Assembly (NCBI RefSeq): GCF_056712565.1
Contig: NZ_JBWXXM010000003.1
DNA length: 64,000 bases
From: a plasmid
Direction: 5' to 3' (one strand)
The notes beneath the pieces are model-generated. The model was not told the origin of the DNA. It worked only from the letters and a program-made list of their open reading frames with translations, and did no database searches. Of this stretch, positions 16,364 through 34,929 are shown in pieces; positions within the stretch are counted from its first letter, which is position 1; each line of letters begins with the position of its first letter. A program made the position numbers and the translations under genes.

Positions 16364-16434
16364 ATTAACAATATCAGTCAAATGAGAACATATTCTGATA
16401 TTGTTACGATAAAAAATTATTTTATGAGGGGTAC

Positions 16435-16815: not shown

Positions 16816-16877
16816 GAATTCATTAACGTTACAGGTTTATCAACTAATGTGACGCTTAGGATAGAATTTCGCTCCAT

Positions 16878-16938
16878 GGTATGCGTTTGCAGTCATTACA
16901 GTCTCCATGACGACTGTAATGACTGCAAACGCATTACC
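16878..16938. repeat. long near-perfect inverted repeat (~26-bp arms, 7-nt spacer)
   Basis: GGTATGCGTTTGCAGTCATTACAGTC-TCCATGA-CGACTGTAATGACTGCAAACGCATTACC downstream of crcB. Confidence 0.7.
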
Positions 16939-17194
16939 TGACATATCAGTATAAACAATGAATTAACCTCTTGGCGTATTTTTTACATCACTGGCCCTCA
17001 CCCCCCAAAATTCTCTCTGAAAAATTGTTGCGGTTAACGTTGCCAATGTATCCACCCATTTCAGAAGACGATCTGGCATCCTGGTGGCATGCTGCGATGT
17101 GCTTCAGGTGAGTGCACTGGGCGGTCAGCACAGGCGGTTTCGACAGCGAAATTGCACAGGACGTTATGCCGGCTGTGAGTACAACATCATAGCC

Positions 17195-18388: not shown

Positions 18389-18459
18389 TGTAATGTTTCA
18401 ACACCATGTATTAATTGTGTTTATTTGTAAAATTAATTTTTCTGACAATAACATTTCTC

Positions 18460-18500
18460 ATTGATAATGAGAATCATTATTGACATAATTGTTATTATTT
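18460..18500. promoter_or_regulatory. aerobactin (iucA) promoter with Fur boxes
   Basis: CATTGATAATGAGAATCATTATTGACATAATTGTTATTATTTTAC matches Fur consensus GATAATGATAATCATTATC; just upstream of iucA RBS AGGAG. Confidence 0.85.
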
Positions 18501-18523
18501 TACTGTGTAGGAGCTGTTTGATT

Positions 18524-20248
18524 ATGATCCTGCCCTCTGAAAAATCCGCCACAGATGTGGCTGCGCAGTGCTTCCTGAATGCCTTGATTCGTGAAACCAA
18601 AGACTGGCAACTGGCGGAATACCCGCCAGACGAATTGATTATCCCGCTGGACGAACAGAAGTCGCTCCATTTCAGAGTGGCTTATTTCTCCCCAACCCAG
18701 CATCACCGCTTTGCATTTCCTGCTCATCTGGTCACGGCATCAGGCAGTTATCCTGTCGACTTTACCACTCTCTCCCGGCTTATTATTGATAAGCTCCGGC
18801 ATCAACTTTTTCTGCCAGTTCCCCTCTGCGAAACTTTCCACCAACGCGTGCTGGAAAGCTACGCCCATACGCAACAGACAATTGATGCCCGCCATGACTG
18901 GGCCATCCTGCGTGAAAAAGCGTTGAATTTTGGCGAGGCTGAGCAGGCACTGCTGACAGGACACGCTTTCCACCCTGCACCTAAGTCTCATGAACCGTTT
19001 AACCGCCAGGAAGCTGAACGATACCTGCCTGACATGGCACCTCACTTCCCGCTGCGGTGGTTTTCGGTGGATAAAACGCAAATCGCTGGTGAAAGTCTGC
19101 ATCTTAACCTTCAACAGCGGTTGACGCGATTTGCCGCAGAAAATGCGCCCCAGTTACTCAACGAATTAAGTGACAATCAATGGCTGTTCCCGCTGCACCC
19201 GTGGCAGGGAGAATATCTTTTGCAGCAAGTGTGGTGCCAGGCACTTTTTGCTAAAGGACTTATCAGAGACTTAGGCGAGGCCGGCACGTCGTGGCTGCCG
19301 ACCACCTCTTCCCGCTCCCTCTACTGTGCTACCAGCCGCGATATGATCAAGTTCTCCCTGAGCGTTCGGCTGACCAACTCCGTCCGTACTCTGTCTGTGA
19401 AAGAGGTGGAGCGAGGAATGCGCCTGGCACGTCTGGCGCAAACCGACGGCTGGCAGATGCTACAGGCCCGCTTCCCTACTTTCCGGGTAATGCAGGAGGA
19501 CGGCTGGGCCGGGCTGCGCGATCTTAACGGCAACATCATGCAGGAAAGTTTGTTTTCCCTGCGTGAAAACCTGCTGCTGGAGCAGCCGCAAAGCCAGACC
19601 AACGTTCTGGTTTCCCTGACTCAGGCCGCACCGGATGGCGGTGATTCGCTGCTGGTTTCGGCGGTAAAACGCCTGAGCGATCGCCTCGGTATCACTGTGC
19701 AACAGGCCGCCCACGCATGGGTCGATGCTTACTGTCAGCAGGTGCTGAAGCCTCTGTTTACGGCTGAAGCGGATTACGGCCTGGTGCTGCTGGCGCATCA
19801 GCAAAATATTCTTGTGCAGATGCTTGGGGATCTGCCGGTCGGATTTATTTACCGTGACTGCCAGGGCAGCGCGTTTATGCCTCACGCGACAGAGTGGCTC
19901 GATACCATTGACGAGGCGCAGGCGGAAAATATTTTCACCCGTGAGCAGTTGCTGCGCTATTTCCCTTATTACCTGCTGGTTAACTCCACTTTTGCCGTAA
20001 CTGCTGCGCTGGGTGCTGCCGGGCTGGACAGCGAAGCGAATCTGATGGCTCGTGTACGAACATTGCTGGCTGAAGTGCGTGACCAGGTGACTCATAAAAC
20101 CTGTCTCAACTATGTTCTGGAAAGTCCGTACTGGAACGTAAAAGGTAACTTTTTCTGTTATCTGAACGATCATAACGAGAACACCATCGTTGACCCTTCG
20201 GTGATCTATTTTGATTTCGCTAACCCGCTGCAGGCTCAGGAGGTCTGA
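18524..20248 (+). CDS. iucA: IucA, aerobactin synthetase (NIS synthetase)
   Basis: Start MILPSEKSATDVAAQCFLNALIRETKDW inside track ORF 18461-20248, preceded by AGGAG; IucA/IucC family. Confidence 0.9.
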   Translation: MILPSEKSATDVAAQCFLNALIRETKDWQLAEYPPDELIIPLDEQKSLHFRVAYFSPTQHHRFAFPAHLVTASGSYPVDFTTLSRLIIDKLRHQLFLPVPLCETFHQRVLESYAHTQQTIDARHDWAILREKALNFGEAEQALLTGHAFHPAPKSHEPFNRQEAERYLPDMAPHFPLRWFSVDKTQIAGESLHLNLQQRLTRFAAENAPQLLNELSDNQWLFPLHPWQGEYLLQQVWCQALFAKGLIRDLGEAGTSWLPTTSSRSLYCATSRDMIKFSLSVRLTNSVRTLSVKEVERGMRLARLAQTDGWQMLQARFPTFRVMQEDGWAGLRDLNGNIMQESLFSLRENLLLEQPQSQTNVLVSLTQAAPDGGDSLLVSAVKRLSDRLGITVQQAAHAWVDAYCQQVLKPLFTAEADYGLVLLAHQQNILVQMLGDLPVGFIYRDCQGSAFMPHATEWLDTIDEAQAENIFTREQLLRYFPYYLLVNSTFAVTAALGAAGLDSEANLMARVRTLLAEVRDQVTHKTCLNYVLESPYWNVKGNFFCYLNDHNENTIVDPSVIYFDFANPLQAQEV

Positions 20249-21196
20249 ATGTCTGGGGCAAACATTGTTCACAGCGGATATGGACTGCGCTGTGAAAAAC
20301 TCGACAAGCCTCTGAATCTTGGCTGGGGGCTGGACAATAGCGCGGTGTTGCACTGGCCCGGGGAGCTGCCAACAGGGTGGCTGTGCGACGCGCTGGATCA
20401 GATATTTATCGCCGCACCACAACTTTCAGCAGTGGTTCTTCCCTGGTCCGAATGGTATGAGGAGCCACAGGCGCTGACGCTTTTCGGACAGGTACAAAGC
20501 GACATTATCCATCGTTCCGCTTTCTGGCAGTTACCGTTATGGCTGAGTTCTCCGGCAAACCGGGCCTCCGGTGAAATGGTTTTTGATGCAGAGCGTGAGA
20601 TTTATTTCCCGCAGCGCCCCCCCCGTCCGCAGGGTGAAGTTTATCGTCGTTACGATCCACGCATTCGCAGGATGCTGAGTTTCCGCATTGCCGATCCCGT
20701 TTCTGATGCAGAACGTTTCACTCGCTGGATGAACGATCCGCGCGTTGAGTATTTCTGGGAGCAAAGTGGCTCACTGGAGGTACAGATCGCCTATCTGGAA
20801 CGCCAGCTCACCAGTAAACATGCATTCCCGCTGATTGGTTGTTTCGACGATCGGCCGTTCAGTTATTTCGAAATCTACTGGGCGGCGGAAGACCGCATTG
20901 GTCGCCACTATTCGTGGCAGCCCTTTGACCGTGGCCTGCATCTGCTGGTTGGTGAACAGCAATGGCGCGGAGCCCACTATGTGCAAAGCTGGCTGCGCGG
21001 GGTGACACATTACCTGCTGCTGAATGAGCCACGTACGCAGCGCACAGTACTGGAGCCACGCATCGATAACCAGCGCCTGTTCCGCCATCTTGAGCCTGCG
21101 GGATACCGGACAATTAAAGAGTTCGACTTCCCACATAAACGCTCGCGCATGGTGATGGCGGATCGTCATCACTTCTTCACGGAGGTCGGTCTGTAA
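20249..21196 (+). CDS. iucB: IucB, N6-hydroxylysine acetyltransferase
   Basis: 315 aa between iucA and iucC; operon position and sequence. Confidence 0.9.
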   Translation: MSGANIVHSGYGLRCEKLDKPLNLGWGLDNSAVLHWPGELPTGWLCDALDQIFIAAPQLSAVVLPWSEWYEEPQALTLFGQVQSDIIHRSAFWQLPLWLSSPANRASGEMVFDAEREIYFPQRPPRPQGEVYRRYDPRIRRMLSFRIADPVSDAERFTRWMNDPRVEYFWEQSGSLEVQIAYLERQLTSKHAFPLIGCFDDRPFSYFEIYWAAEDRIGRHYSWQPFDRGLHLLVGEQQWRGAHYVQSWLRGVTHYLLLNEPRTQRTVLEPRIDNQRLFRHLEPAGYRTIKEFDFPHKRSRMVMADRHHFFTEVGL

Positions 21197-22938
21197 TGAA
21201 TCACAAAGACTGGGATTTGGTCAACCGCCGCCTGGTGGCAAAAATGTTGTCTGAGCTGGAGTATGAGCAGGTTTTCCACGCGGAATCTCAGGGCGATGAC
21301 CGCTACTGCATTAACCTGCCGGGAGCACAATGGCGCTTCATCGCTGAACGTGGTATCTGGGGCTGGCTCTGGATTGATGCTCAAACTCTGCGCTGCGCGG
21401 ACGAGCCAGTACTGGCTCAGACGCTGCTGATGCAGCTAAAGCAGGTACTGTCAATGAGCGATGCAACCGTTGCTGAGCATATGCAGGATTTGTATGCCAC
21501 GCTGCTGGGCGACCTGCAACTACTGAAAGCCCGTCGCGGGCTGAGCGCCAGTGACCTGATTAATCTTAATGCCGACCGCCTGCAATGCCTGCTGAGCGGT
21601 CATCCTAAATTCGTTTTTAATAAAGGTCGCCGTGGCTGGGGTAAAGAGGCGCTGGAACGATATGCGCCAGAGTATGCCAACACCTTCAGACTGCACTGGC
21701 TGGCGGTAAAACGTGAACATATGATCTGGCGCTGTGATAACGAGATGGATATTCATCAGTTGTTGACGGCCGCAATGGATCCGCAGGAGTTTGCCCGCTT
21801 CAGTCAGGTCTGGCAGGAAAACGGACTGGATCATAACTGGCTGCCGCTGCCGGTACATCCGTGGCAGTGGCAGCAAAAAATCGCTACCGACTTCATCGCT
21901 GATTTTGCCGAAGGCAGGATGGTGTCTCTCGGCGAGTTTGGCGACCAGTGGCTCGCCCAGCAGTCGCTGCGTACCCTGACCAACGCCAGTCGCCGGGGCG
22001 GGCTGGATATCAAGCTGCCGCTGACCATCTACAACACCTCATGCTACCGGGGGATCCCTGGCAGATACATCGCTGCCGGACCACTGGCTTCACGCTGGCT
22101 ACAACAGGTTTTTGCGACCGACGCCACCCTAGTGCAAAGCGGCGCAGTGATACTTGGTGAACCGGCTGCAGGCTATGTCTCCCATGAAGGCTATGCCGCG
22201 CTTGCCCGGGCTCCCTATCGCTACCAGGAAATGCTTGGTGTTATCTGGCGGGAGAATCCGTGCCGCTGGCTGAAACCGGATGAAAGTCCGGTTCTGATGG
22301 CAACACTGATGGAGTGCGACGAAAACAATCAGCCGCTGGCAGGCGCATATATAGACCGCTCCGGGCTGGACGCTGAAACCTGGCTTACGCAACTGTTCCG
22401 GGTGGTCGTGGTTCCTCTGTATCACCTGCTTTGCCGCTACGGTGTCGCGCTTATTGCACATGGACAAAATATAACTCTCGCCATGAAAGAGGGGGTTCCA
22501 CAGCGTGTTCTGCTGAAAGACTTCCAGGGCGATATGCGACTGGTGAAAGAAGAGTTCCCCGAAATGGACTCTTTGCCTCAGGAGGTTCGTGATGTTACAT
22601 CCCGCCTGAGTGCGGACTACTTAATCCATGATTTGCAGACGGGTCACTTCGTGACAGTACTGCGTTTTATTTCGCCACTGATGGTTCGTCTTGGCGTACC
22701 TGAAAGGCGATTTTATCAACTGCTGGCAGCAGTGTTGAGTGATTACATGAAAAAACATCCACAAATGTCAGAGCGTTTTGCGCTTTTCTCACTTTTCAGG
22801 CCACAAATCATTCGCGTGGTGCTGAACCCGGTAAAACTGACCTGGCCTGATCTGGATGGCGGCAGCCGCATGCTGCCGAATTACCTTGAGGATCTGCAAA
22901 ATCCGCTGTGGCTGGTAACTCAGGAATATGAATCATGA
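21196..22938 (+). CDS. iucC: IucC, aerobactin synthetase
   Basis: 580 aa IucA/IucC family paralog. Confidence 0.9.
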   Translation: MNHKDWDLVNRRLVAKMLSELEYEQVFHAESQGDDRYCINLPGAQWRFIAERGIWGWLWIDAQTLRCADEPVLAQTLLMQLKQVLSMSDATVAEHMQDLYATLLGDLQLLKARRGLSASDLINLNADRLQCLLSGHPKFVFNKGRRGWGKEALERYAPEYANTFRLHWLAVKREHMIWRCDNEMDIHQLLTAAMDPQEFARFSQVWQENGLDHNWLPLPVHPWQWQQKIATDFIADFAEGRMVSLGEFGDQWLAQQSLRTLTNASRRGGLDIKLPLTIYNTSCYRGIPGRYIAAGPLASRWLQQVFATDATLVQSGAVILGEPAAGYVSHEGYAALARAPYRYQEMLGVIWRENPCRWLKPDESPVLMATLMECDENNQPLAGAYIDRSGLDAETWLTQLFRVVVVPLYHLLCRYGVALIAHGQNITLAMKEGVPQRVLLKDFQGDMRLVKEEFPEMDSLPQEVRDVTSRLSADYLIHDLQTGHFVTVLRFISPLMVRLGVPERRFYQLLAAVLSDYMKKHPQMSERFALFSLFRPQIIRVVLNPVKLTWPDLDGGSRMLPNYLEDLQNPLWLVTQEYES

Positions 22939-24212
22939 AAAAAAGTGTCGATTTTATTGGTGTAGGGACAGGGCCATTTAATCTCAGCATTGCTGCGTTG
23001 TCACATCAGATCGAAGAACTGGACTGTCTCTTCTTTGATGAACATCCTCATTTTTCCTGGCATCCGGGTATGCTGGTACCGGATTGTCATATGCAGACCG
23101 TCTTTCTGAAAGATCTGGTCAGTGCTGTTGCACCTACAAATCCCTACAGTTTTGTTAACTATCTGGTGAAGCACAAAAAGTTCTATCGCTTCCTTACAAG
23201 CAGACTACGTACAGTATCCCGTGAAGAGTTTTCTGACTACCTCCGCTGGGCTGCTGAAGATATGAATAACCTGTATTTCAGTCATACCGTTGAAAACATT
23301 GATTTCGATAAAAAACGTCGATTGTTTCTGGTGCAAACCAGCCAGGGAGAATATTTTGCCCGCAATATCTGCCTTGGTACAGGAAAACAACCTTATTTAC
23401 CACCCTGTGTGAAGCATATGACACAATCCTGTTTCCATGCCAGTGAAATGAATCTTCGTCGGCCGGACCTTAGTGGAAAACGGATAACCGTGGTTGGTGG
23501 AGGACAGAGTGGTGCAGACCTGTTCCTTAATGCATTACGCGGGGAATGGGGAGAAGCGGCGGAAATAAACTGGGTCTCCCGGCGTAATAATTTTAACGCA
23601 CTGGATGAGGCTGCTTTTGCTGATGAGTATTTTACACCTGAATATATTTCAGGCTTCTCCGGACTGGAGGAAGATATTCGCCATCAGTTACTGGATGAGC
23701 AGAAAATGACATCGGATGGCATCACTGCCGATTCTTTACTGACCATTTATCGTGAGTTGTACCACCGTTTTGAAGTTCTGAGAAAACCAAGAAATATCCG
23801 TCTGCTACCCAGCCGCTCGGTAACAACTCTGGAAAGTAGTGGTCCTGGCTGGAAGTTGCTGATGGAGCATCATCTGGATCAGGGCAGGGAGAGCCTGGAA
23901 AGTGATGTGGTGATTTTCGCCACAGGTTACCGTTCTGCGTTGCCACAAATACTTCCCTCACTGATGCCCCTGATCACCATGCACGATAAGAACACCTTTA
24001 AAGTGCGTGATGACTTCACTCTGGAATGGAGTGGCCCGAAAGAGAACAACATCTTCGTGGTCAACGCCAGTATGCAAACCCATGGCATCGCCGAACCCCA
24101 GCTCAGCCTGATGGCATGGAGATCTGCACGTATTCTTAATCGCGTAATGGGACGTGATTTATTCGATCTCAGTATGCCGCCCGCCCTGATTCAGTGGCGC
24201 AGCGGCACCTAG
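22935..24212 (+). CDS. iucD: IucD, L-lysine N6-monooxygenase
   Basis: FAD-binding GxGxxN (IGVGTGPFNLS) and second dinucleotide motif VVGGGQSGAD; exact start not resolved. Confidence 0.9.
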   Translation: MKKSVDFIGVGTGPFNLSIAALSHQIEELDCLFFDEHPHFSWHPGMLVPDCHMQTVFLKDLVSAVAPTNPYSFVNYLVKHKKFYRFLTSRLRTVSREEFSDYLRWAAEDMNNLYFSHTVENIDFDKKRRLFLVQTSQGEYFARNICLGTGKQPYLPPCVKHMTQSCFHASEMNLRRPDLSGKRITVVGGGQSGADLFLNALRGEWGEAAEINWVSRRNNFNALDEAAFADEYFTPEYISGFSGLEEDIRHQLLDEQKMTSDGITADSLLTIYRELYHRFEVLRKPRNIRLLPSRSVTTLESSGPGWKLLMEHHLDQGRESLESDVVIFATGYRSALPQILPSLMPLITMHDKNTFKVRDDFTLEWSGPKENNIFVVNASMQTHGIAEPQLSLMAWRSARILNRVMGRDLFDLSMPPALIQWRSGT

Positions 24213-24293
24213 GGAAAACGCAGCCGGAGGCTGCTTCTTTAACTCGCTACACAGCATCTTTGGGCTGATTTTTTCCGCCCGTATGGAGGAATA

Positions 24294-26495
24294 ATGATGA
24301 TAAGCAAAAAGTATACGCTTTGGGCTCTCAACCCACTGCTTCTTACCATGATGGCGCCAGCAGTCGCTCAACAAACCGATGATGAAACGTTCGTGGTGTC
24401 TGCCAACCGCAGCAATCGCACCGTAGCGGAGATGGCGCAAACCACCTGGGTTATCGAAAACGCCGAACTGGAACAGCAGATTCAGGGCGGCAAAGAGCTT
24501 AAAGACGCACTGGCTCAGCTGATCCCTGGCCTTGACGTCAGCAGCCGGAGCCGCACCAACTACGGTATGAATGTGCGTGGCCGCCCGCTGGTCGTGCTGG
24601 TTGACGGCGTGCGTCTCAACTCTTCACGTACCGACAGCCGACAACTGGACTCTATAGATCCTTTTAATATCGACCATATTGAAGTGATCTCCGGTGCGAC
24701 GTCCCTGTACGGCGGCGGCAGTACCGGTGGCCTGATCAACATCGTGACCAAAAAAGGCCAGCCGGAAACCATGATGGAGTTTGAGGCTGGCACCAAAAGT
24801 GGCTTTAGCAGCAGTAAAGATCACGATGAACGCATTGCCGGAGCTGTCTCCGGCGGAAATGAGCATATCTCCGGACGTCTTTCCGTGGCATATCAGAAAT
24901 TTGGCGGCTGGTTTGACGGTAACGGCGATGCCACCTTGCTTGATAACACCCAGACCGGCCTGCAGTACTCCGATCGGCTGGACATCATGGGAACTGGTAC
25001 GCTGAACATCGATGAATCCCGGCAGCTTCAGTTGATCACACAGTACTATAAAAGCCAGGGCGACGACGATTACGGGCTTAATCTCGGGAAAGGCTTCTCT
25101 GCCATCAGAGGGACCAGCACGCCATTCGTCAGTAACGGGCTGAATTCCGACCGTATTCCCGGCACTGAGCGGCATTTGATCAGCCTGCAGTACTCTGACA
25201 GCGCTTTTCTGGGACAGGAGCTGGTCGGTCAGGTTTACTACCGCGATGAGTCGTTGCGATTCTACCCGTTCCCGACGGTAAATGCGAACAAACAGGTGAC
25301 GGCTTTCTCTTCGTCACAGCAGGACACCGACCAGTACGGCATGAAACTGACTCTGAACAGCAAACCGATGGACGGCTGGCAAATCACCTGGGGGCTGGAT
25401 GCTGATCATGAGCGCTTTACCTCCAACCAGATGTTCTTCGACCTGGCTCAGGCAAGCGCTTCCGGAGGGCTGAACAACAAGAAGATTTACACCACCGGGC
25501 GCTATCCGTCGTATGACATCACCAACCTGGCGGCCTTCCTGCAATCAGGCTATGACATCAATAATCTCTTTACCCTCAACGGTGGCGTACGCTATCAGTA
25601 CACTGAAAACAAGATTGATGATTTCATCGGCTACGCGCAGCAACGGCAGATTGCCGCCGGGAAGGCTACATCCGCCGACGCCATTCCTGGCGGCTCAGTC
25701 GATTACGACAACTTCCTGTTCAACGCCGGTCTGCTGATGCACATCACCGAACGCCAGCAGGCATGGCTCAACTTCTCCCAGGGCGTGGAGCTGCCGGACC
25801 CGGGTAAATACTATGGTCGCGGCATCTATGGTGCTGCAGTGAACGGCCATCTTCCTCTAACAAAGAGTGTGAACGTCAGCGACAGCAAGCTGGAAGGCGT
25901 GAAAGTCGATTCTTATGAGCTGGGCTGGCGCTTTACTGGCAATAATCTGCGTACCCAAATCGCGGCCTACTATTCGATTTCTGATAAGAGCGTGGTGGCG
26001 AATAAAGATCTGACCATCAGCGTGGTGGACGACAAACGCCGTATTTACGGCGTGGAAGGTGCGGTGGACTACCTGATTCCTGATACTGACTGGAGTACCG
26101 GAGTGAACTTCAACGTGCTGAAAACTGAGTCGAAAGTGAACGGTACCTGGCAGAAATACGATGTGAAGACAGCAAGCCCATCAAAAGCGACAGCCTACAT
26201 TGGCTGGGCACCGGACCCGTGGAGTCTGCGCGTGCAGAGCACCACCTCCTTTGACGTGAGCGACGCGCAGGGCTACAAGGTCGATGGCTATACCACCGCG
26301 GATCTGCTCGGCAGTTATCAGCTTCCGGTGGGTACACTCAGCTTCAGCATTGAAAACCTCTTCGACCGTGACTACACCACTGTCTGGGGGCAGCGTGCAC
26401 CACTGTACTACAGCCCGGGTTACGGCCCAGCGTCACTGTACGACTACAAAGGCAGGGGCCGAACCTTTGGTCTGAACTACTCTGTGCTGTTCTGA
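24294..26495 (+). CDS. iutA: IutA, TonB-dependent ferric aerobactin receptor
   Basis: 733 aa with signal peptide, TonB box region, C-terminal ...NYSVLF typical of TonB-dependent receptors. Confidence 0.9.
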   Translation: MMISKKYTLWALNPLLLTMMAPAVAQQTDDETFVVSANRSNRTVAEMAQTTWVIENAELEQQIQGGKELKDALAQLIPGLDVSSRSRTNYGMNVRGRPLVVLVDGVRLNSSRTDSRQLDSIDPFNIDHIEVISGATSLYGGGSTGGLINIVTKKGQPETMMEFEAGTKSGFSSSKDHDERIAGAVSGGNEHISGRLSVAYQKFGGWFDGNGDATLLDNTQTGLQYSDRLDIMGTGTLNIDESRQLQLITQYYKSQGDDDYGLNLGKGFSAIRGTSTPFVSNGLNSDRIPGTERHLISLQYSDSAFLGQELVGQVYYRDESLRFYPFPTVNANKQVTAFSSSQQDTDQYGMKLTLNSKPMDGWQITWGLDADHERFTSNQMFFDLAQASASGGLNNKKIYTTGRYPSYDITNLAAFLQSGYDINNLFTLNGGVRYQYTENKIDDFIGYAQQRQIAAGKATSADAIPGGSVDYDNFLFNAGLLMHITERQQAWLNFSQGVELPDPGKYYGRGIYGAAVNGHLPLTKSVNVSDSKLEGVKVDSYELGWRFTGNNLRTQIAAYYSISDKSVVANKDLTISVVDDKRRIYGVEGAVDYLIPDTDWSTGVNFNVLKTESKVNGTWQKYDVKTASPSKATAYIGWAPDPWSLRVQSTTSFDVSDAQGYKVDGYTTADLLGSYQLPVGTLSFSIENLFDRDYTTVWGQRAPLYYSPGYGPASLYDYKGRGRTFGLNYSVLF

Positions 26496-26564: not shown

Positions 26565-26632
26565 AATACACGACATAATCTGTAGTCAGGGAGGATAGAC
26601 TCTTTACTGACTACAGATTATGTCGTGTTCCG
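26565..26632. repeat. palindrome downstream of iutA resembling the RepFIB iteron-proximal palindrome
   Basis: ACACGACATAATCTGTAGTCAGGGAGGATAGACTCTTTACTGACTACAGATTATGTCGTGT; compare 7738-7785 CTGTAGTCAGTAAAGGAGCGCTCTTCACTGACTACAG. Confidence 0.6.
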
Positions 26633-27019
26633 TGCTCATTTCCTCAAAAAATACAAGAAAAGAATTAGTATTCTAACAAAAAGTGAAATAAATTGTATCA
26701 AACTCCCTCTTTTAATCCTGTTGAGTAAATCAGCTTTTGCAATAGGATTGAAAGAGTGTAAGTGGAATCTCTTCCGGATACTCGTTACCACCGTGGCTAG
26801 AATATCTACGGCTGCGGGCCAGTAATAGATTAAGTGATAACAGCTGTCTGGAAATGTAGGGGCGTATCCACTAATCATAATCATTGTGAGATAAATATTA
26901 CGGGGCATTTTATAATGAATAAAATATACTCTCTAAAATATTGTCATATTACCAATACCATGAAGGTGATGCTGCCAACTTACTGATTTAGTGTATGATG
27001 GTGTTTTTGAGGTGCTCCA

Positions 27020-27295
27020 GTGGCTTCTGTTTCTATCAGCTGTCCCTCCTGTTCAGCTACTGACGGGGTGGTGCGTAACGGCAAAAGCACCGCCGGACAT
27101 CAGCGCTATCTCTGCTCTCACTGCCGTAAAACATGGCAACTGCAGTTCACTTACACCGCTTCTCAACCCGGTACGCACCAGAAAATCATTGATATGGCCA
27201 TGAATGGCGTTGGATGCCGGGTAACTGCCCGCATTATGGGCGTTGGCCTCAACACGATTTTACGTCACTTAAAAAACTCAGGCCGCAGTCGGTAA
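27020..27295 (+). CDS. insA: IS1 InsA
   Basis: 91 aa identical to copy 1 InsA. Confidence 0.95.
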
Positions 27296-27717
27296 CCTCG
27301 CGCATACAGCCGGGCAGTGATGTGATTGTCTGCGCTGAAATGGACGAACAGTGGGGCTATGTCGGGGCTAAATCGCGCCAGCGCTGGCTGTTTTACGCGT
27401 ATGACAGTCTCCGGAAGACGGTTGTTGCGCACGTATTCGGTGAACGCACTATGGCGACGCTGGGGCGTCTTATGAGCCTGCTGTCACCCTTTGACGTGGT
27501 GATATGGATGACGGATGGCTGGCCGCTGTATGAATCCCGCCTGAAGGGAAAGCTGCACGTAATCAGCAAGCGATATACGCAGCGAATTGAGCGGCATAAC
27601 CTGAATCTGAGGCAGCACCTGGCACGGCTGGGACGGAAGTCGCTGTCGTTCTCAAAATCGGTGGAGCTGCATGACAAAGTCATCGGGCATTATCTGAACA
27701 TAAAACACTATCAATAA
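27214..27717 (+). CDS. insB: IS1 InsB
   Basis: 167 aa identical to copy 1 InsB. Confidence 0.95.
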
Positions 27718-27727
27718 GTTGGAGTCA

Positions 27728-28402
27728 TTACCGTGCACGGTAACGGGCCATATCAATGAGCAGTTCCTCTCCAATTTTATTTGCCCCTAGAGAGCGGCGA
27801 GTTTTCTTCACTTCAATGACAATCTTCTCTTTCTTCAGAAGAAAATCCTGTCTGGATGATGAACCTGCGAAGCTAGGTGAATTTTCTTCAGGTCTGACAT
27901 CATTAAAATGCAGCAGCAGAAGAGCATGAACAAGATCCTGTACATCATACTCGTCATTAATTTCAAGCGGCGTTCTGTCATTGTATCGTTGCTTTAATTG
28001 ACGACAAAAAGCTGGAAATTTATTGAGTATATTTATAATCAAATCCAGTTCGGCATGTTTTGTTGCTATAGTCGATGCCGTGCCGGAGTAAGTTAAATCG
28101 TCTCTGGCTGCATCAAAAATAGGTTTGTAATGTCTAACCAATCCCTGATAATTACTAGACCAAGCAATCCTTTGTGTATCATTAAAATCTTTGTAGTAAT
28201 CAGATTCCTTTCCATAACTGTCTTCAAGTAACTTTTTTGCTCTTGCAATCCAGTTATTACCTTTAGCCGAATCAATATATTCCTGGCTTCTGTGACTAAA
28301 TGCACTTGTTCCCATATATTTTGTCGACATGACAGAATTGTACTCTTGTTCAAGCACTTCAAATCTTTCAGCTAAGGTCTTCTTCGTCATAGCGCAATCC
28401 AA
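27728..28402 (-). CDS. hypothetical protein with PD-(D/E)xK-like motif; C-terminus and stop codon supplied by IS1 end (probably 3'-truncated)
   Basis: 224 aa; C-terminal region ...LLLLHFNDVRPEE...(25 aa)...KIVIEVKK fits hhhD...hhhExK pattern; stop TAA lies inside IS1 terminal GGTAATGA. Confidence 0.5.
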   Translation of the reverse strand: MDCAMTKKTLAERFEVLEQEYNSVMSTKYMGTSAFSHRSQEYIDSAKGNNWIARAKKLLEDSYGKESDYYKDFNDTQRIAWSSNYQGLVRHYKPIFDAARDDLTYSGTASTIATKHAELDLIINILNKFPAFCRQLKQRYNDRTPLEINDEYDVQDLVHALLLLHFNDVRPEENSPSFAGSSSRQDFLLKKEKIVIEVKKTRRSLGANKIGEELLIDMARYRAR

Positions 28403-28559
28403 ATTATATGCTAATAATACCTGTGAATTTTAATATTCTACCATATCTGGCTTTCTTCCGTTCACATTGGACATTCAGGTAATTTCGTCCAGTTCTGCTG
28501 GCTGTGCTGGAGCTAGCCTGGTATAATTTAACCAGCCATTTCAACAGCGGTGGTGTCTT

Positions 28560-28754
28560 ATGAACGTCAAGAACATGTTTTACGGTGCCATTCTGGTAAG
28601 TGCTGTATGGGCGGTTATTTTGCTCTCATGGTTTGAATCCAGCCTTACCTTAAGCGATTACCTCAGGTACGAATCGGTAATCCTGATCCCATGCCTGCTG
28701 TGGGTTGCTGTTTATGGGTTAGGTAAACGTTACCTCCAAAGAACATCAAACTAG
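28560..28754 (+). CDS. hypothetical small membrane protein (64 aa, two predicted TM helices)
   Basis: MNVKNMFYGAILVSAVWAVILLSWFESSLTLSDYLRYESVILIPCLLWVAVYGLGKRY...; preceded by extended -10-like TGGTATAAT (~28521) and followed by hairpin TCCCTGGCT-CACCTGGAC-AGCCAGGGA. Confidence 0.4.
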   Translation: MNVKNMFYGAILVSAVWAVILLSWFESSLTLSDYLRYESVILIPCLLWVAVYGLGKRYLQRTSN

Positions 28755-28829
28755 CCGCGCCAGCGACTTTTTTTACACCTTCGTTTAATTCCCTGGCTCA
28801 CCTGGACAGCCAGGGAATTCTGCCCAGCG

Positions 28830-29309
28830 CTACTGGCTTGCTGTGCCAAACTTTCCGTTGCAGATTTCCTCATTCACAATGGCCTGAAACATGGAAACAG
28901 AATTTCTAGCCTTATCCCTCAGTGCATTAATGAGTTCTGTGTCGTGTATTTTGTTGTAGAAAATGAAAGTAGAAACATCAAACTGGAGTTTAAATGCTGC
29001 TTTCCTTATGGCTAAACCTGACGTGATCGTTATCTCATTATGTATGCGAAGATAGGCAAGATAATCATCGTTATTTGCTTCACACTGCTCATATAAATAT
29101 TTTTGCATGAGAGATTGAGACAAGGCCAGAAATTCCACATATCGTTTGGTTTTTATTTCTTTATCTTTTAATCCCTGTACTGCCGCTTCTTTTTTTAATT
29201 CGTGCTTTTGTGTTAGCTTAAGAGTCAGCCACCCCCCTAAAATAGTCAGCAACGACCCCAAACCTATTTTTACGGCATTATCAGCCACATCCACCCACTC
29301 AGTCGCCAT
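28830..29309 (-). CDS. hypothetical protein (159 aa) with N-terminal TM segment
   Basis: AT-rich ORF, N-terminal hydrophobic helix IGLGSLLTILGGWLTL; divergent from 29427-29876. Confidence 0.45.
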   Translation of the reverse strand: MATEWVDVADNAVKIGLGSLLTILGGWLTLKLTQKHELKKEAAVQGLKDKEIKTKRYVEFLALSQSLMQKYLYEQCEANNDDYLAYLRIHNEITITSGLAIRKAAFKLQFDVSTFIFYNKIHDTELINALRDKARNSVSMFQAIVNEEICNGKFGTASQ

Positions 29310-29426
29310 CTGTTACTCGTTCTTCCTGTGATGATCATGGTTGCCAGTATAATTCCAGCACAGACTGGACGTACAGCATTTTCTGTCCAGTAGACAGACT
29401 GTTACACTCAGGATAGGATAGCTTCT

Positions 29427-29876
29427 ATGGTTAAATTTCCAGGTGAAGTTATGAGTTCGTCCGCTGCTGTAACCGTTATAACTGGTGTTCTTGTTTTTGT
29501 TGGTGGTCAGCTCATTGTAAAGAGCGCGATTGAACCTTATATAGAATTCAAGAAACAATTGGGAAAAATATCAAATCTGCTATTAGCTAACCAAGCTAAA
29601 TTAGCTAATCCTTGTGCTGTTGAAATGTCTGAGATCATCCATGAGTTGAAAGATGCCGCAGCTCAGTTAATGTCGAAGCATTCAGCTTTGCCTTTCTATA
29701 TCAAAAAATTCCATATCGGATTCCGCTTTGTTCCATCAACGCCTGAAATTATTAGTTCGGCGCAAAAATTGAATTTGATAGCATCAATACATGAAGGTAA
29801 AAGCAAGGAAAGTACATATGAGCACATAGCCGAGATTGGACGTATGCTCAAAATCCCAACCACCTATTCTCTTTAA
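29427..29876 (+). CDS. hypothetical protein (149 aa) with N-terminal TM segment
   Basis: AT-rich ORF, hydrophobic VTVITGVLVFVGGQLIV; followed by hairpin plus T-tract terminator at ~29926-29957. Confidence 0.45.
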   Translation: MVKFPGEVMSSSAAVTVITGVLVFVGGQLIVKSAIEPYIEFKKQLGKISNLLLANQAKLANPCAVEMSEIIHELKDAAAQLMSKHSALPFYIKKFHIGFRFVPSTPEIISSAQKLNLIASIHEGKSKESTYEHIAEIGRMLKIPTTYSL

Positions 29877-30049
29877 TCTTCACGCCGATCAGATTACATA
29901 ATCCACGCGCCACCTGGACATTCAGGTAAAAAAGTCCAACTGGTGAGGTTGGGCTTTTTGGCTTTCCGGTTCTGTTGGTGGCTATGACCGGAGAAAATTG
30001 CTCTACACCTAACGCTTACATTTTATTTACAGCGTTTGATATCTTCCTC

Positions 30050-30094
30050 GCCTTTAACGCCTTTAACGCCTTTAACGCCTTTAACGCCTTTAAG
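30050..30094. repeat. 9-bp tandem repeat (GCCTTTAAC)x5
   Basis: GCCTTTAACGCCTTTAACGCCTTTAACGCCTTTAACGCCTTTAAG read directly. Confidence 0.9.
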
Positions 30095-30501
30095 GGGGGA
30101 AGATAGAGCAACTCACCGATGATGAATAAAGTGGACGAAGAGACGATAACTACACTCCCATCCAGGGGGGGGCTTTTTTTGTGGTACTGTAGTGTGGGAG
30201 TAAGTTCGGGTCTCATATTGAATGAGGCGATTGCGAGCTGCCTTTCATCGAAAACTAATGTCCATTGTCATTGTATTGTCTGACTCTATCTCGTAACAAG
30301 TCTTTGACACAAAGTTTTATATTTTTATCAAAGTGGACATGAGGGGAATTAAATTTGTGATCTTTTTCAAATAATGTGTTCTTGATAGTAGATTCTGGTT
30401 AGTGATATCTATTAACAATATATTAAATTTCTTTTGTATTATCGCTGATAAAACTACTGTATTGGTATACTATATATTATTGAGTAACAGGAGATATCAC
30501 T

Positions 30502-32004
30502 ATGAAGAAATTTTATCAATTTAGGGATGAACAGCGAAAGGAGCTTGAACAACATGATTTTTATAGTTTGATTTCTTCAGATTGTATAGCGTTGAAAGAT
30601 AAACTATTATTTGCTCCTGTTATGGCTCATTTCATAATGAACTTCAGAGACATGAATAAATGGGTTATCAGGTTTGATAACAATGATAATGAATATAAAT
30701 CTGTTATAAACGGTGGAACAATCGAGGATGAAACACATTCAAGATTGTTTCTGGAAGACTGGAGGAAACTATATATAGATGACAAACTTAACTGGAAAGC
30801 AAGTGATGTTATATACTGGTTGTTTATTAGTCGAGAAATGGAGTGTTTCCGAAAATTTGGTATTGATTTTATGAGACTTTGTGTAGATGATGGAGGAGAC
30901 CCAATACTTCGATATTCTCACTCCGAGTCAGGAGAAACTTGCGGTAATATATTCTTTTCAAGAATTAGTCCTATTGCTGATCAAGTTGCCAATCATTTGG
31001 GAATATCACTCCGTTATTTTGGAACATTTCACCTTAATCTTGAAAATGGACATGTATGGAAGTCAGAAGGTGTTTTTGAAAATATAGAGTTGTCACCAGA
31101 TTCTTATAAGAAAATGGCTACTCTATCAAAGAGAATGTTTGATATATTTGAAGGAATTCATGACTCTTTTTATAATTACCTGTCCAGTTATGTTCTTAAT
31201 GGAAGTCATCCGTCATTTTTTGAATCATTACCTGTAGGGAAAAATGTTGCACCTATATACCCTGAATTTGTGATAGAAAACAAAAGCCATAACGATGGTA
31301 GACATATTGAACATATAAACAATTACCTGGAAAAAATATCGAGTCATGAGTTCTTTAAATGGCTGGTTAACACCTCAATAGACCCTCAATTGAAATTGAA
31401 AAGTTTCATACCTCTTTGGATTGTTGATATTATGGGGTATAGAGATATTAATAAATATGTTTTTACATATGAACAGCCTGAATCAGAAAGTGAAAAGATT
31501 ATAAATGATTATGCATTACACTTGTCAGAGCATAGCCGTTTATTTTATCATGACTGGAAGTCACTTCAACTTGATGATATGTTACGTTGGAGTGCCAGTG
31601 ATACTCTTGAGTTTATTTTTCTTAATTCAGATATGGATATGCATAGAGAAAATATAGTTAAGTTTTCTTTGTTCGGATTAAAACACAGAGATCCTGTTAT
31701 CAGGTTCTGGTTTATGATGATACTGGAGTTAAGTGGAAAAGAATTTTTCTCTCATGTTGGAGATATAGCTTTACAGGTGGAAAGTAAATATAATATTTAT
31801 CTCCCATATTTATGTGGACGCCATGCAACAGAAAATGAGCATGAAGCATATAATAATATGTATGAGCATTTTATGGTAAAGGAACTTAGCCCTGAACAAA
31901 GTGATCTAATAATACAAATTACAGACATGGTTATGCGGTCATTATTGAATAATTTGGATATCTCATATCGATATGTAGTAAATAATTTATTGGCAGCTCG
32001 TTAG
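30502..32004 (+). CDS. hypothetical 500-aa protein with internal duplication, AT-rich
   Basis: ATG at 30502 with AGGAG RBS; internal repeats HSRLFLEDWRKLYIDDKLNWKASDVIYWLFISREMECF and HSRLFYHDWKSLQLDDMLRWSASDTLEFIFLNSDMDMH; terminator hairpin AAATCCCACTT-TTCA-GAGTGGGATTTGTTT at ~32040-32070. Confidence 0.6.
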   Translation: MKKFYQFRDEQRKELEQHDFYSLISSDCIALKDKLLFAPVMAHFIMNFRDMNKWVIRFDNNDNEYKSVINGGTIEDETHSRLFLEDWRKLYIDDKLNWKASDVIYWLFISREMECFRKFGIDFMRLCVDDGGDPILRYSHSESGETCGNIFFSRISPIADQVANHLGISLRYFGTFHLNLENGHVWKSEGVFENIELSPDSYKKMATLSKRMFDIFEGIHDSFYNYLSSYVLNGSHPSFFESLPVGKNVAPIYPEFVIENKSHNDGRHIEHINNYLEKISSHEFFKWLVNTSIDPQLKLKSFIPLWIVDIMGYRDINKYVFTYEQPESESEKIINDYALHLSEHSRLFYHDWKSLQLDDMLRWSASDTLEFIFLNSDMDMHRENIVKFSLFGLKHRDPVIRFWFMMILELSGKEFFSHVGDIALQVESKYNIYLPYLCGRHATENEHEAYNNMYEHFMVKELSPEQSDLIIQITDMVMRSLLNNLDISYRYVVNNLLAAR

Positions 32005-32789
32005 AAGAACAGCATTGGTATGACTCTGATGCTCCTTAAAATCCCACTTTTCAGAGTGGGATTTGTTTAATGCCCAGAACAGGGGGAATTTCCATTCATG
32101 CCCAAAAAATATTTTGATGTCCTCTCGCCAATTCTCGCGCTCAGTCCTTCCTGAAAAACCTCAGAATTCACGTAGCGCATCGCCGCTACTGCATCCATCA
32201 AAAAAAATGACAGCTTTTTTAATCATCTTGTGTTACTCAACTTACTGAAAAATGTGATTTATGAAAATGCCGCCGTCGGCATCAAGCAGTTGGCCAGCGC
32301 AACCGGCTGCATCGACCGCAACAAAAAAACTGAAAGAGAAAGCCCCTCAAATGAGGGAGAAAAAAAGGAAGTGCAGTCAACGAGAGGCGTAAAAAACCCG
32401 ACTGGTGAGGTCGGGTTTTAATACGGTTCCGGTTCTGAGTTGGTGGCTCTGACCGGAGGAAGTCACTCTACACCTAACGTTTACATTTTATGCACTCAGC
32501 CGCAGTATTGCAACTAACTGTGGTTAAGGCACCACATTTAGTTGTGTATCGTGGGTTTTATATACCTTATAATCATGAAGTTAGCCGTGTGGTGTGGCTT
32601 CTTCCTCTGCCCTTCCCGTTTATGCAGGTATGAACGATTTTAAAGTCCTGGCTGAACAAACAGGTGGTGCTGTGTTTAGTGCTCTGGCAGGAGGAAGTCA
32701 CTCTGCACCTAACAATGCGAGAGAACCGTTGTGACAGGCAGTGTAAGAGCAAGCAACGGTGATTTCCTCCAGTTTTACTGGAGAAACGG

Positions 32790-32885
32790 ATGATTAATCT
32801 GTTAATCATCGTTCTCAGGGCTGTGGTCGCCGTTGCAAACGCGCTGATTGCAATTCTGGAACTGATTCGCCAGTTCATCGACTGA
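32790..32885 (+). CDS. putative small hydrophobic toxin peptide (31 aa), DinQ/TisB-like, copy 1
   Basis: MINLLIIVLRAVVAVANALIAILELIRQFID; GGAG RBS; start codon inside perfect inverted repeat GATGATTAA-TCTG-TTAATCATC; coordinates approximate. Confidence 0.45.
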   Translation: MINLLIIVLRAVVAVANALIAILELIRQFID

Positions 32886-33707
32886 TGACAGCGGAAACGT
32901 AACTAAGGACAGGAAGTGAACCGCTTCCTGCCCTTTAACGTACTGTGATATTTTTCAAAAAAACTCACCAATATTCTCCTCGGCAGAAATGACATAACTC
33001 ACTGTAAAATAACAAATCATCTAAACGCCAGCTTTGTATTGAGCGCGTTGGCCAACGCCTTTATCAGCTGCGACCGCACCAGATAATTTGAATAAGATTT
33101 CCCGCATCACCTGGACATACAGGTTATTCTGTCCATACCTCATTAGTTACAACATTCACGCGTTCTGTTCCTTTATCCGGTGCCCTGTTCCAGTATATGT
33201 GCCCATATCCTGGGTTATTCAGGATAACCGCTTCCTTTTCGCCCTGTCCTGTCGTTCATATCCCCCTGGACAAAAATGCATTATCGGAAAAAATGTCCAA
33301 AATTTTTTTGGTGATCGGAATTTTTGTTGTCGGACGCACCTCTTCTTCAGGTCATAATTGCTGACACATCCCAAAAAACAGGAGCGGAGATTTAAAAATT
33401 GAGTCACTTACCCGCCAAAATTTTCCAGATTTCACGTAGCGTACCGTCGATACTGTATCCATCAACAAATGACTATTTTTTGAATGTGTCATTTCCTGTA
33501 ACCTACTGAAAAATATCAGTGAATGACAATATCGGCGACAGCATCGGAGCTGATAGCCAGTTTCCTGAATGCATATGGCCAGAACAGTAAATTTGAACCA
33601 GGTTCTCACGTCACCAGGCGACGTGTCTGGGAAACTGGTGAACAACAGGCACAGAAAAGCCCAACTTTATGGGGGTCAGTTCAGTGAGGTTGGGCTAAGA
33701 GAAACGA

Positions 33708-33803
33708 ATGATTAACCTGTTAATCATCATTCTCAGGGATGTGGTCGCCGTTGCAAACGCGCGGATTGCAGTTCTGGAACTGATTCGCCAGTTCATCGTT
33801 TGA
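33708..33803 (+). CDS. putative small hydrophobic toxin peptide (31 aa), DinQ/TisB-like, copy 2
   Basis: MINLLIIILRDVVAVANARIAVLELIRQFIV; same start-codon inverted repeat ATGATTAA-CCTG-TTAATCAT; coordinates approximate. Confidence 0.4.
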   Translation: MINLLIIILRDVVAVANARIAVLELIRQFIV

Positions 33804-34028
33804 TGACAGCGGAAACGTAACTCAGGACAGGAAGTTCCAAATAGCTCCCAGCCAGCATATGTAATTTTCAAAGGGGCAGTTGTTAACTCTGTAATAACGC
33901 CATGTAAAGTATTCCTGCCCCCTCCATGATCCTCCATAGTATTTCTTGAGTTAATTTTCAAAAAGCTTCTGATGGTGATGCTGCCAACTTACTGATTTAG
34001 TGTATGATGGTGTTTTTGAGGTGCTCCA

Positions 34029-34304
34029 GTGGCTTCTGTTTCTATCAGCTGTCCCTCCTGTTCAGCTACTGACGGGGTGGTGCGTAACGACAAAAGCACC
34101 ACCGGACATCAGCGCTATCTCTGCTCTCACTGCCGTAAAACATGGCAACTGCAGTTCACTTACACCGCTTCTCAACCCGGTACGCACCAGAAAATCATTG
34201 ATATGGCCATGAATGGCGTTGGATGCCGGGCAACTGCCCGCATTATGGGCGTTGGCCTCAACACGATTTTACGTCACTTAAAAAACTCAGGCCGCAGTCG
34301 GTAA
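34029..34304 (+). CDS. insA: IS1 InsA
   Basis: 91 aa. Confidence 0.95.
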
Positions 34305-34726
34305 CCTCGCGCATACAGCCGGGCAGTGACGTCATCGTCTGCGCGGAAATGGACGAACAGTGGGGCTATGTCGGGGCTAAATCGCGCCAGCGCTGGCTGT
34401 TTTACGCGTATGACAGTCTCCGGAAGACGGTTGTTGCGCACGTATTCGGTGAACGCACTATGGCGACGCTGGGGCGTCTTATGAGCCTGCTGTCACCCTT
34501 TGACGTGGTGATATGGATGACGGATGGCTGGCCGCTGTATGAATCCCGCCTGAAGGGAAAGCTGCACGTAATCAGCAAGCGATATACGCAGCGAATTGAG
34601 CGGCATAACCTGAATCTGAGGCAGCACCTGGCACGGCTGGGACGGAAGTCGCTGTCGTTTTCAAAATCGGTGGAGCTGCATGACAAAGTCATCGGGCATT
34701 ATCTGAACATAAAACACTATCAATAA
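34223..34726 (+). CDS. insB: IS1 InsB
   Basis: 167 aa. Confidence 0.95.
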
Positions 34727-34929
34727 GTTGGAGTCATTACCGCCTTGACCATCAGATAGTTATTTTGGTGCTAGGGATACTGAGTGTGAACAGTTAGCGC
34801 GCGTCCTCGCCAGTTAGCTCGCTACGCTCGGTTACACGACGGCTACGAGTACTAGTGATAATTATTGACTGAGGTATGTGCTCTTCCTGTTTCCTTTTTT
34901 GATGTGTTGCTCTCATTTTAAACAACTTT

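Follow-up and report, generated by a model that had tools for sequence, protein, structure and literature searches.

A segment of probable IncX cargo-region origin, built of palindrome-bounded modules, between two IS1 copies of a ColV virulence plasmid

A 6,241-bp interval between two copies of the insertion sequence IS1 (termed here the segment) was analysed within a 64,000-nucleotide stretch of plasmid DNA (contig NZ_JBWXXM010000003.1 of RefSeq assembly GCF_056712565.1; termed the window). The window is part of a ColV/IncFIB-type Escherichia coli virulence plasmid, along which the order is sitABCD, iucABCD-iutA, IS1, segment, IS1 and sopAB. From left to right the modules of the segment would be an IS1-cut PD-(D/E)xK nuclease gene, a peptide with two transmembrane segments, two N-terminally anchored small proteins and an orphan AgrB-like gene with a 9-bp repeat (modules 1-4), followed by a tandem AetD-like oxidase, an agrB/dqlB pair, the non-coding block that precedes a recombinase gene in IncX4 plasmids and a decayed second dqlB (modules 5-8); copies of a palindrome, termed here pal, lie at joints between them. 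The open reading frames (ORFs) and repeats that an initial annotation, made from the DNA letters alone, had placed between the two direct IS1 copies are all present. That annotation also described the segment as far more AT-rich than its neighbours, which holds strongly against the aerobactin locus (39.5% G+C for the segment, 53.2% for iuc-iutA) and just modestly against the sop locus (46.5% for sopAB); ORF E alone stands at 32.3%.

Some twenty ColV plasmids, pS88, pECCH138-1 and pMRY16-002_1 among them, share the segment at 99.6-100% identity. At least 80% of it is present in 34 of 2,983 matching PLSDB records and in 49 of 5,426 complete E. coli genomes; plasmids account for 2,000 of the 2,032 match sites in E. 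coli genomes, and most other matches span just ~300 bp around dqlB. In pS88, the pS88027-031 transcripts were quantified by quantitative reverse-transcription PCR, which showed no significant change in serum, in urine or on iron depletion (PMC3438092). Since these transcripts were measured, the segment genes are not silent.

ORF A (27728-28390, minus strand) encodes a nuclease of the DpnII/MboI-type restriction endonuclease (REase) fold, so that its initial designation as PD-(D/E)xK-like is confirmed by a Pfam match (PF18742, 3e-33); the domain is incomplete, the match spanning model positions 3-106 of 150. The gene lacks its 3' end: what is left encodes, at 100% identity, residues 1-219 of the 263-amino-acid (aa) product of an intact IncX4 gene, the last 44 codons having been replaced by the left IS1, within which the stop codon lies. 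PADLOC matches ORF A to its Aga_Helical-REase model, which is associated with prokaryotic Argonautes (pAgo), at 4e-23. ORF B (28560-28754, plus strand), a 64-aa peptide with two hydrophobic segments by hydropathy, forms a module bounded by pal1 and pal2. ORF C (28830-29309, minus strand) encodes an N-terminally anchored, helical protein of 159 aa and belongs to an orphan Enterobacterales family; in its AlphaFold2 (AF2) model (pLDDT 82.5) a long helix at the N-terminus leads into a helical bundle, and Foldseek returns a DUF4760 protein at 1.4e-8. ORF C has no match in Pfam, and in the family searches (Pfam, NCBIfam, PADLOC and PHROG) it gave just weak hits (E about 0.01-0.05), far under the cut-off. 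ORF D (29427-29876, plus strand; 149 aa, with an N-terminal transmembrane helix by hydropathy) matches phrog_7512 at 4e-60 and likewise forms an orphan family; every named homologue of ORFs C and D is from Enterobacterales. ORFs B, C and D are small and hydrophobic, in keeping with their first description as three small membrane proteins, though the N-terminal segment of ORF C falls under the hydropathy cut-off used. ORF F (32230-32421, plus strand), annotated as a 55-63-aa hypothetical protein, overlaps the terminator of the second AgrB-like gene, has no family match and is listed in databases as 'hypothetical' only; it is doubtful as a gene. Searches of Pfam, NCBIfam, PADLOC and PHROG returned nothing for ORFs B and F. 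The database names 'peptidase M14' (for ORF C), 'malate dehydrogenase' and 'phosphopyruvate hydratase' were rejected, there being no domain support for them. Homologues of ORF C (169 aa) also occur in the IncX4 and IncX1 cargo regions within a conserved trio, whose other members are a 112-aa protein and an AAA ATPase of 633 aa (5823-8761 of the pNE92-2 stretch and 1951-4889 of the IncX1 stretch); this trio may be a separate functional unit.

ORF E (30502-32004, plus strand) encodes a 500-aa tandem duplication of an AetD-like domain, that is, of a heme-oxygenase-like diiron oxidase domain. The internal duplication seen at first reading is borne out by alignment of the two halves (32% identity, E 3e-25). 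Although searches of Pfam, NCBIfam, PADLOC and PHROGs gave no match, a profile built from 46 ORF E homologues matches the nitrile synthase AetD, whose structure is in the PDB, at 4e-38, and the AF2 model (pLDDT 93) aligns with AetD chains at a Foldseek TM of 0.87-0.91. The iron ligands of AetD are D76, H79, E140, H172, E176 and H179 (PMC10654658); their ORF E counterparts are D76, H79, E145, H177, E181 and H184, of which the first five are invariant in 46/46 homologues and H184 is kept in 43/46. The C-terminal half has an invariant leucine (L341) in place of the aspartate and no conservation at the positions that match E181 and H184. The predicted metal site is complete in the N-terminal half and degenerate in the C-terminal half, and ORF E as a whole is predicted, from sequence and model, to be a tandem AetD-like diiron oxidase. 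It resembles AetD and SktA (diiron oxidases acting on tryptophan) in fold, in sequence and in keeping all six iron ligands; it differs from them in fusing two domains, the second with an incomplete metal site, and in being plasmid-borne with no halogenase, P450 or other biosynthetic neighbour in the window. The only characterised relatives turn tryptophan derivatives into a nitrile, or into skatole and cyanide (PMC11869266). The ~500-aa tandem family, for which there is no Pfam model, spans enterobacterial plasmids, Yersinia, Piscirickettsia, Comamonas, myxobacteria and actinomycetes, usually as a lone gene near mobile elements. In Comamonas an ORF E homologue overlaps a P450 gene, which is followed by a gene for a major facilitator superfamily (MFS) transporter (6001-10217 of that stretch); among the contexts seen, this is the sole one whose gene content hints at small-molecule biosynthesis.

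The two ORFs first described as small-toxin-like are both 31 aa long, lie 918 bp apart and are both annotated as dqlB in RefSeq. The first, dqlB-1 (32790-32885, plus strand), encodes a DinQ-like type I toxin that scores 72.4 bits against the DqlB model NF041473 (cut-off 35 bits); the second, dqlB-2 (33708-33803, plus strand), scores 58.2 bits and bears A11D and L19R substitutions in its hydrophobic helix. The score against NF041472 is 25, below the threshold of 30 for chromosomal dinQ proper. What had been described as a ~105-bp conserved hairpin element is indeed a repeat of ~100 bp (29926-30026 versus 32389-32491), its identity being that of two AgrB-like antisense RNA genes. AgrB-like small RNA gene 2 (AgrB-2; 32389-32477, minus strand; 32389-32513 with its promoter) scores 64 bits against Rfam RF02891, for which the gathering score is 40 bits, and is assigned as the dqlB-1 antitoxin; its promoter, TTGCAA-17-TAAAAT at 32485-32513, ends 8 nt ahead of the RNA start. 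AgrB-like gene 1 (AgrB-1; 29926-30012, minus strand), an orphan, scores 46 bits, and no promoter was found for it at a 9-of-12 cut-off. An AgrB target lies in the 5' untranslated region of dqlB-1 (32682-32712, plus strand), where 28/31 positions are Watson-Crick matches to the 5' end of AgrB-2, compared with 23/31 for AgrB-1. A toxin ORF in the AgrB-1 module was also considered and rejected, as alignment to the dqlB modules reveals no DqlB-like ORF downstream of AgrB-1. At dqlB-2 there is no complementarity to either AgrB, and alignment to the dqlB-1 module shows that the 5' part of AgrB, the promoters and the target-bearing leader are all missing; by this comparison dqlB-2 is a deletion derivative and a decayed copy.

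AgrB-2 and dqlB-1 apparently constitute an intact type I toxin-antitoxin pair, in which AgrB-2 RNA would pair with the dqlB-1 leader and block toxin synthesis, so that plasmid-free cells would be killed, as demonstrated for the relatives on pOXA-48 and pOXA-484. On pOXA-48 the toxin yields ghost cells and agrB rescues in trans, rescue is restored by compensatory mutations, and curing of the plasmid is followed by killing (PMC12365149); the same architecture, including plasmid stabilisation, was shown experimentally for IncX3 pOXA-484 (PMC12317039). Both studies, in 2025, thereby established the agrB/dqlB family as a type I toxin-antitoxin and addiction module acting by post-segregational killing (PMC12365149, PMC12317039). 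As on pOXA-48 (IncL) and pOXA-484 (IncX3), a 31-aa hydrophobic toxin matching NF041473 is accompanied by a divergent RF02891 RNA; as in these systems and in chromosomal dinQ-agrAB, complementarity of ~31 nt is located in the toxin leader; and the two AgrB-type genes recall agrA and agrB of the chromosomal locus. Unlike dinQ-agrAB, the segment contains no LexA box (CTGY-N8-RCAG), so that SOS control is not supported and the toxin is of DqlB type rather than dinQ proper. Both known arrangements also differ from the segment in that here the second AgrB gene lies 2.4 kb off, with ORF E in between, and the second toxin has neither leader nor antitoxin and bears charged substitutions. Two points weigh against reading the pair as active: a scan for a dqlB-1 promoter found no strong sigma-70 consensus, and the activity of this particular pair is argued by analogy with its relatives. 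By that analogy the segment's sole assignable function would be the known DqlB/AgrB addiction system. The suggestion of an addiction function therefore fits the presence of agrB/dqlB, and the statement that the segment holds only uncharacterised genes, none with a known plasmid function, was wrong, because dqlB/agrB is a known toxin-antitoxin system.

The origin of the segment is indicated by its closest matches. Positions 28788-33441 are 94% identical to the IncX4 plasmid NZ_CP022051.2, where the homologous stretch lies between backbone (topB and a SprT-like gene) and the tyrosine recombinase-parA genes; positions 27733-29390 are 99.8% identical to the IncX4 plasmid pSW071620; and positions 33111-33469 match IncX1, the dqlB-2 arrangement being IncX1-like as well. 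Taken together, these matches indicate that the whole interval is IncX cargo-region DNA. It includes a conserved non-coding block, 'Ra' (33136-33441), which in IncX4 leads into the recombinase gene and which IncX1 possesses too; positions 33399-33441 equal codons 1-14 of the IncX4 recombinase gene, the remainder of which is absent from the segment. As judged from these alignments, the segment is a fragment of the variable IncX cargo region, which extends from hns/topB to resolvase-parA, now residing in ColV/IncFIB plasmids; and it would be a mosaic of independent modules common to the IncX4 and IncX1 cargo regions rather than a co-operating island.

The joints between these modules are marked by pal, a site of roughly 40 bp with the core TGGACA-N12-TGTCCA. 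The palindrome noted at the outset, TGGAC-N14-GTCCA, was recovered as four exact copies and one with a single mismatch, all within the segment; with a relaxed matcher, five copies are found there versus 0.17 expected from shuffles. All five are intergenic and share one orientation (plus strand). At the ORF A/ORF B junction, homology with pNE92-2 and pGXEC3 starts at pal1 (28468-28491), an exact TGGAC-N14-GTCCA copy; at the ORF B/ORF C junction, homology with NZ_CP022051.2 starts at 28788, the first position of pal2 and its conserved left arm (28788-28826); and at the ORF C/ORF D junction, homology with pSW071620 stops at 29390, next to pal3 (29366-29389). The fourth copy, pal4 (29915-29938), overlaps the terminator end of AgrB-1; the fifth, pal5 (33112-33135), is the consensus copy, to the left of which different modules are found in other plasmids. 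Whole IncX4 and IncX1 plasmids contain 3-6 clear pal sites each, in the cargo region only, on one strand and between genes, versus about 0.1-0.2 in shuffles; an extra match with six mismatches inside the IncX1 resolvase gene looks like chance.

That pal sites coincide with homology breakpoints is observed directly: in 15 plasmid comparisons, the boundaries of homology blocks fall at pal. The block with ORF B, which runs from pal1 to pal2, was seen in three settings: in the window, beside higBA in pNE92-2 and directly ahead of the recombinase in pGXEC3. Empty and occupied forms of the same site are also directly visible. In pSW071620, the match to the window breaks off at 29390 and picks up again at 33099, with one pal in between whose left flank is that of pal3 and whose right flank is that of pal5; the 3.7 kb that span ORF D to dqlB-1 have hence been inserted or deleted between two pals. 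Another plasmid, p4_4.3, has one pal and zero modules. Across 23 distinct pal copies, no fewer than five left flanks are found next to the recombinase-side flank. The pal sequence variant goes with the left flank, and this co-movement places the apparent crossover at the right edge of pal rather than in its central spacer; a TTAATTCC motif lies ~10 nt upstream of pal.

A scan for the pal pattern across genera, using one genome per species, revealed arrays in E. albertii, Hafnia, Serratia, Buttiauxella, Citrobacter, Erwinia, Pantoea, Intestinirhabdus and Klebsiella. In Serratia an ORF A homologue (68% aa identity) is flanked by pals, and in Pantoea homologues of ORF C, ORF D and dqlB lie inside a five-pal array. 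The latter, on a plasmid contig (9529-12180 of that stretch), also holds a 269-aa protein; a further array, with an ORF A homologue, occurs on the chromosome of Pantoea sp. SOD02 (808-3422 of that stretch). A literature search for an IncX recombination site or palindrome returned nothing relevant, which is not proof that pal is undescribed. With sites of recombination type at the module boundaries, in both empty and occupied forms, the region resembles a site-bounded module array of the pdif-module kind. The explanation that best accommodates these observations, and to which a probability of about 0.7 (0.72) is assigned, is that the segment is an IncX cargo fragment composed of pal-bounded modules, bracketed by IS1, and lodged in a ColV plasmid beside sopABC.

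Pal might instead be an operator or a centromere-like site for a DNA-binding protein, such as the partner of a small ParA or a global regulator, in which case pal would simply be a conserved island between unrelated genes and its place at the junctions coincidental. This is unlikely, though it has points in its favour. An inverted repeat that folds poorly as a single strand is typical of a dimer-binding site; a ParA gene adjoins the arrays in IncX4, IncX1 and Pantoea; and IncX1 retains pal without a tyrosine recombinase. The folding itself departs from the 'structured DNA' originally described: apart from pal2, the palindromes fold weakly as single strands (-3 to -5 kcal/mol, z about -1). A stable hairpin or terminator was accordingly rejected for pal, only pal5 being called, as a marginal terminator-like site, and the weak folding fits a duplex protein-binding site. 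An operator or centromere, however, does not explain why pal keeps a single orientation though genes face both ways, why many plasmid pairs are homologous for kilobases on one side of it and unrelated on the other, why an exact empty-site/occupied-site pair exists, or why pal2 sits between two convergent gene ends, which is no promoter position.

Equally, modules might have been exchanged by ordinary homologous or replication-slippage recombination across short repeats, without a dedicated enzyme. The repeats do reach about 37-40 bp, and the ColV and IncX1 versions lack the tyrosine recombinase. Nevertheless this is improbable: pal copies are just 64-83% identical over 24-39 bp, which makes them a poor substrate for RecA-dependent recombination, and the site has been kept across genera in which tested module proteins are down to 56-68% identity (87% for DqlB).

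If pal-bounded modules are exchanged by a dedicated enzyme, then a ResD-like tyrosine recombinase acting at pal is plausible on the basis of gene neighbourhood. A homologue of the IncX4 recombinase is encoded within ~1.3 kb of pal in IncX4 itself, in a 65% relative, and in Buttiauxella (55%), Klebsiella (46%), Hafnia (45%) and Erwinia (42%). Pal would then be a site-specific recombination site for module gain and loss, probably via the adjoining recombinase in IncX4 and several other lineages; and the array in ColV plasmids would be a fossil, because the IncX4-type recombinase gene is absent there. Several observations weigh against this. IncX1 has pal yet encodes only a serine resolvase, so that a tyrosine recombinase as sole explanation was rejected; no pal was seen within 3.5 kb of the ~45% identical homologues sampled from IncI, IncR and IncL/M plasmids, so that pal as the site of every ResD-like recombinase was likewise rejected; a right-edge crossover is atypical for a tyrosine recombinase core; and the orientation of genes within modules varies relative to pal, dqlB being inverted in Pantoea. 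The link between pal and the recombinase is therefore one of co-occurrence, not a rule. Beside these, two arrangements may be recorded. In Hafnia paralvei (3240-5664 of that stretch) the recombinase gene is followed by three pals and small ORFs and then by a duplicate of its own last ~70 codons; it looks as if the modules were inserted along with a copy of the flank. The window itself encodes a 246-aa ResD-like tyrosine recombinase (6759-7499, plus strand), 41% identical to the IncX4 enzyme and 20 kb from the segment, with no pal nearby.

Among the known exchange systems that come close is that of ResD and its rfsF sites, which are switching points in IncI1, IncR and IncF plasmids (PMC8004404, PMC9412624). 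In both cases a small plasmid tyrosine recombinase lies beside partition genes and the site marks switches of gene sets between related plasmids, and the IncX4 recombinase is about 41-47% identical to the IncI1/IncR/IncF-type integrases. Pal differs in occurring in arrays of up to six, each copy closing a small module, whereas rfsF occurs once per plasmid; and the sampled IncI, IncR and IncL/M homologues lack pal nearby. A multi-site pal array would be a variant of the rfsF/ResD theme. As with Acinetobacter pdif modules and integron cassettes, short recombination-type sites bound small modules in many combinations; and, as in integrons, the sites all point one way and the array abuts the recombinase-side flank. 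Judged by consensus sequences, pal presumably has neither XerC/XerD-type half-sites nor attC-type R and L boxes. Unlike integrons, the array has no IntI, and its genes lie in either orientation, apparently with their own promoters. An integron was rejected on these grounds and because the IncX4 recombinase scores 54 bits against integron integrase models, far below their cut-off of 265.

The dense sharing of motifs had been taken to suggest that the genes work together, for example in defence, exclusion or addiction, the motifs co-regulating a co-operating island. In accord with this, all five pals are intergenic, two of them in divergent promoter regions; ORF A matches a defence-associated REase model; ORF D falls in a phage protein family; and homologues of ORF C adjoin an AAA ATPase in IncX1 and IncX4. 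Yet the idea is quite improbable. The motifs are AgrB RNA genes and their mRNA target, or module-junction sites, and the modules assort independently elsewhere: ORF B occurs alone ahead of the recombinase, ORFs A, B and C occur without ORFs D, E and dqlB, and ORF E occurs alone in chromosomes. Furthermore, expression was unresponsive in the conditions tried (PMC3438092). Nor did a defence island materialise: PADLOC found no complete system in the segment, just the partial match of ORF A, which is truncated, to the pAgo-associated REase, with no Argonaute or other partner for it.

The bracket itself consists of IS1a (26965-27732, plus strand; 768 bp, with IS1 terminal repeats and InsA/InsB ORFs), which truncates ORF A, and IS1b (33974-34741, plus strand; 768 bp). 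Coordinates and shared orientation are as first described, and the two copies differ at 8 positions. That the unit is an IS1 composite transposon that entered the ColV plasmid whole is very improbable: in its favour is that the segment stands between direct IS1 copies, both intact at their ends and with transposase ORFs; against it, a 9-bp duplication is missing from outer and inner ends alike, each record inspected shows sopA on one side of the unit and either iutA or the sit operon on the other, its inner junction varies from plasmid to plasmid, and hundreds of plasmids hold one IS1 between the same outer flanks. Specifically, no target duplication of 8-9 bp was found around either IS1 or the whole unit (outer flanks TACCATGAA versus GCCTTGACC), and the inner IS1 flanks, when compared, differ from each other; composite transposition was rejected after comparison of all IS1 flanks, including reverse-complement pairings with a third IS1, gave no duplication. 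In the records inspected the left neighbour alone changes, and no second genomic location was found for the unit. The inner left junction differs among plasmids, in which the match begins at query position 1, 255, 432 or 916; such nested left junctions are the pattern expected of IS1-adjacent deletions. With no duplication, a constant place beside sopA in the records inspected and a variably eroded inner left junction, there is no indication that the segment is a mobile composite transposon.

Loss of the segment by IS1-IS1 recombination, which had also been anticipated, is supported. With a query in which one IS1 links the flanks on the iutA and sopA sides, a single-IS1 form of the locus, joining precisely these outer flanks, is directly seen in at least 575 PLSDB records (a record being counted if at least 80% of the query length matched in one place; the top matches listed are full-length and in a single piece). 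The single IS1 of plasmid 134q is chimeric, being of IS1a type at positions 117 and 128 and of IS1b type at 258-687, which is the product expected of an IS1a x IS1b deletion; that of a second single-IS1 plasmid examined is of IS1a type throughout. As a point on the other side, a chimeric IS1 could equally arise through gene conversion. The segment may have entered through IS1, by cointegrate formation or homologous recombination, then been trimmed by IS1-adjacent deletions and, in other plasmids, lost by recombination of IS1a with IS1b. IS1 copies likewise bracket accessory DNA in the aerobactin region of pColV-K30 and in Tn9, where IS1-IS1 recombination rearranges it; the segment unit differs in that it shows no evidence of transposing, its bracket being better explained by cointegration or recombination and then adjacent deletions.

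The third IS1 (10675-11442), which is inverted and identical in sequence to IS1a, brackets together with IS1a the sitABCD and aerobactin block (11743-26495). Relative to the window, this block is flipped in pS88 and pECCH138-1, where sitA, not iutA, faces the segment; its opposite orientation between inverted IS1 copies indicates IS1-mediated inversion.

Two of the results were unexpected, namely an architecture of pal-bounded modules and a family of tandem AetD-like oxidases. Taken by itself, the segment is commonplace debris of mobile elements with a known addiction module, one that may aid persistence of the ColV virulence plasmid, and it illustrates that IncF virulence plasmids acquire cargo from IncX plasmids. 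More generally, it is tentatively proposed, at somewhat less than even confidence, that pal represents a previously undescribed module-exchange system of Enterobacterales plasmids, in which small self-contained modules, coding for toxin-antitoxins, nucleases, membrane proteins or an oxidase, are inserted and excised at ~40-bp sites beside a ResD-like tyrosine recombinase and have spread from IncX to IncF. If so, the pal system would be functionally an integron- or pdif-like cargo platform, spread by IncX into IncF virulence plasmids; and if a recombinase acts at pal, plasmid families with mcr-1, NDM and OXA genes would have in it a means of shuffling their cargo.

Three further repeats were noted. 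A 44-bp repeat, 84% identical between its copies at 32162-32205 and 33426-33469, lies upstream of both dqlB modules and contains a short GTAGCG/CGCTAC inverted repeat; it lies where IncX4 homology ends (33441, within the second copy) and may be another recurrent junction. The 9-bp tandem repeat reported earlier, GCCTTTAAC, was found at 30050-30094, just upstream of the orphan AgrB-like gene; its copy number varies across otherwise near-identical plasmids from 3 to 6 (3 in pS88, 4 in the window, 5 in an IncX4 plasmid and 6 in pZJ3920-1), and the NAF-repeat peptide that some annotations translate from it is probably spurious. Finally, a perfect 22-bp inverted repeat with a 17-nt spacer (26568-26628) lies just 3' of iutA, in AT-rich DNA ahead of IS1a.

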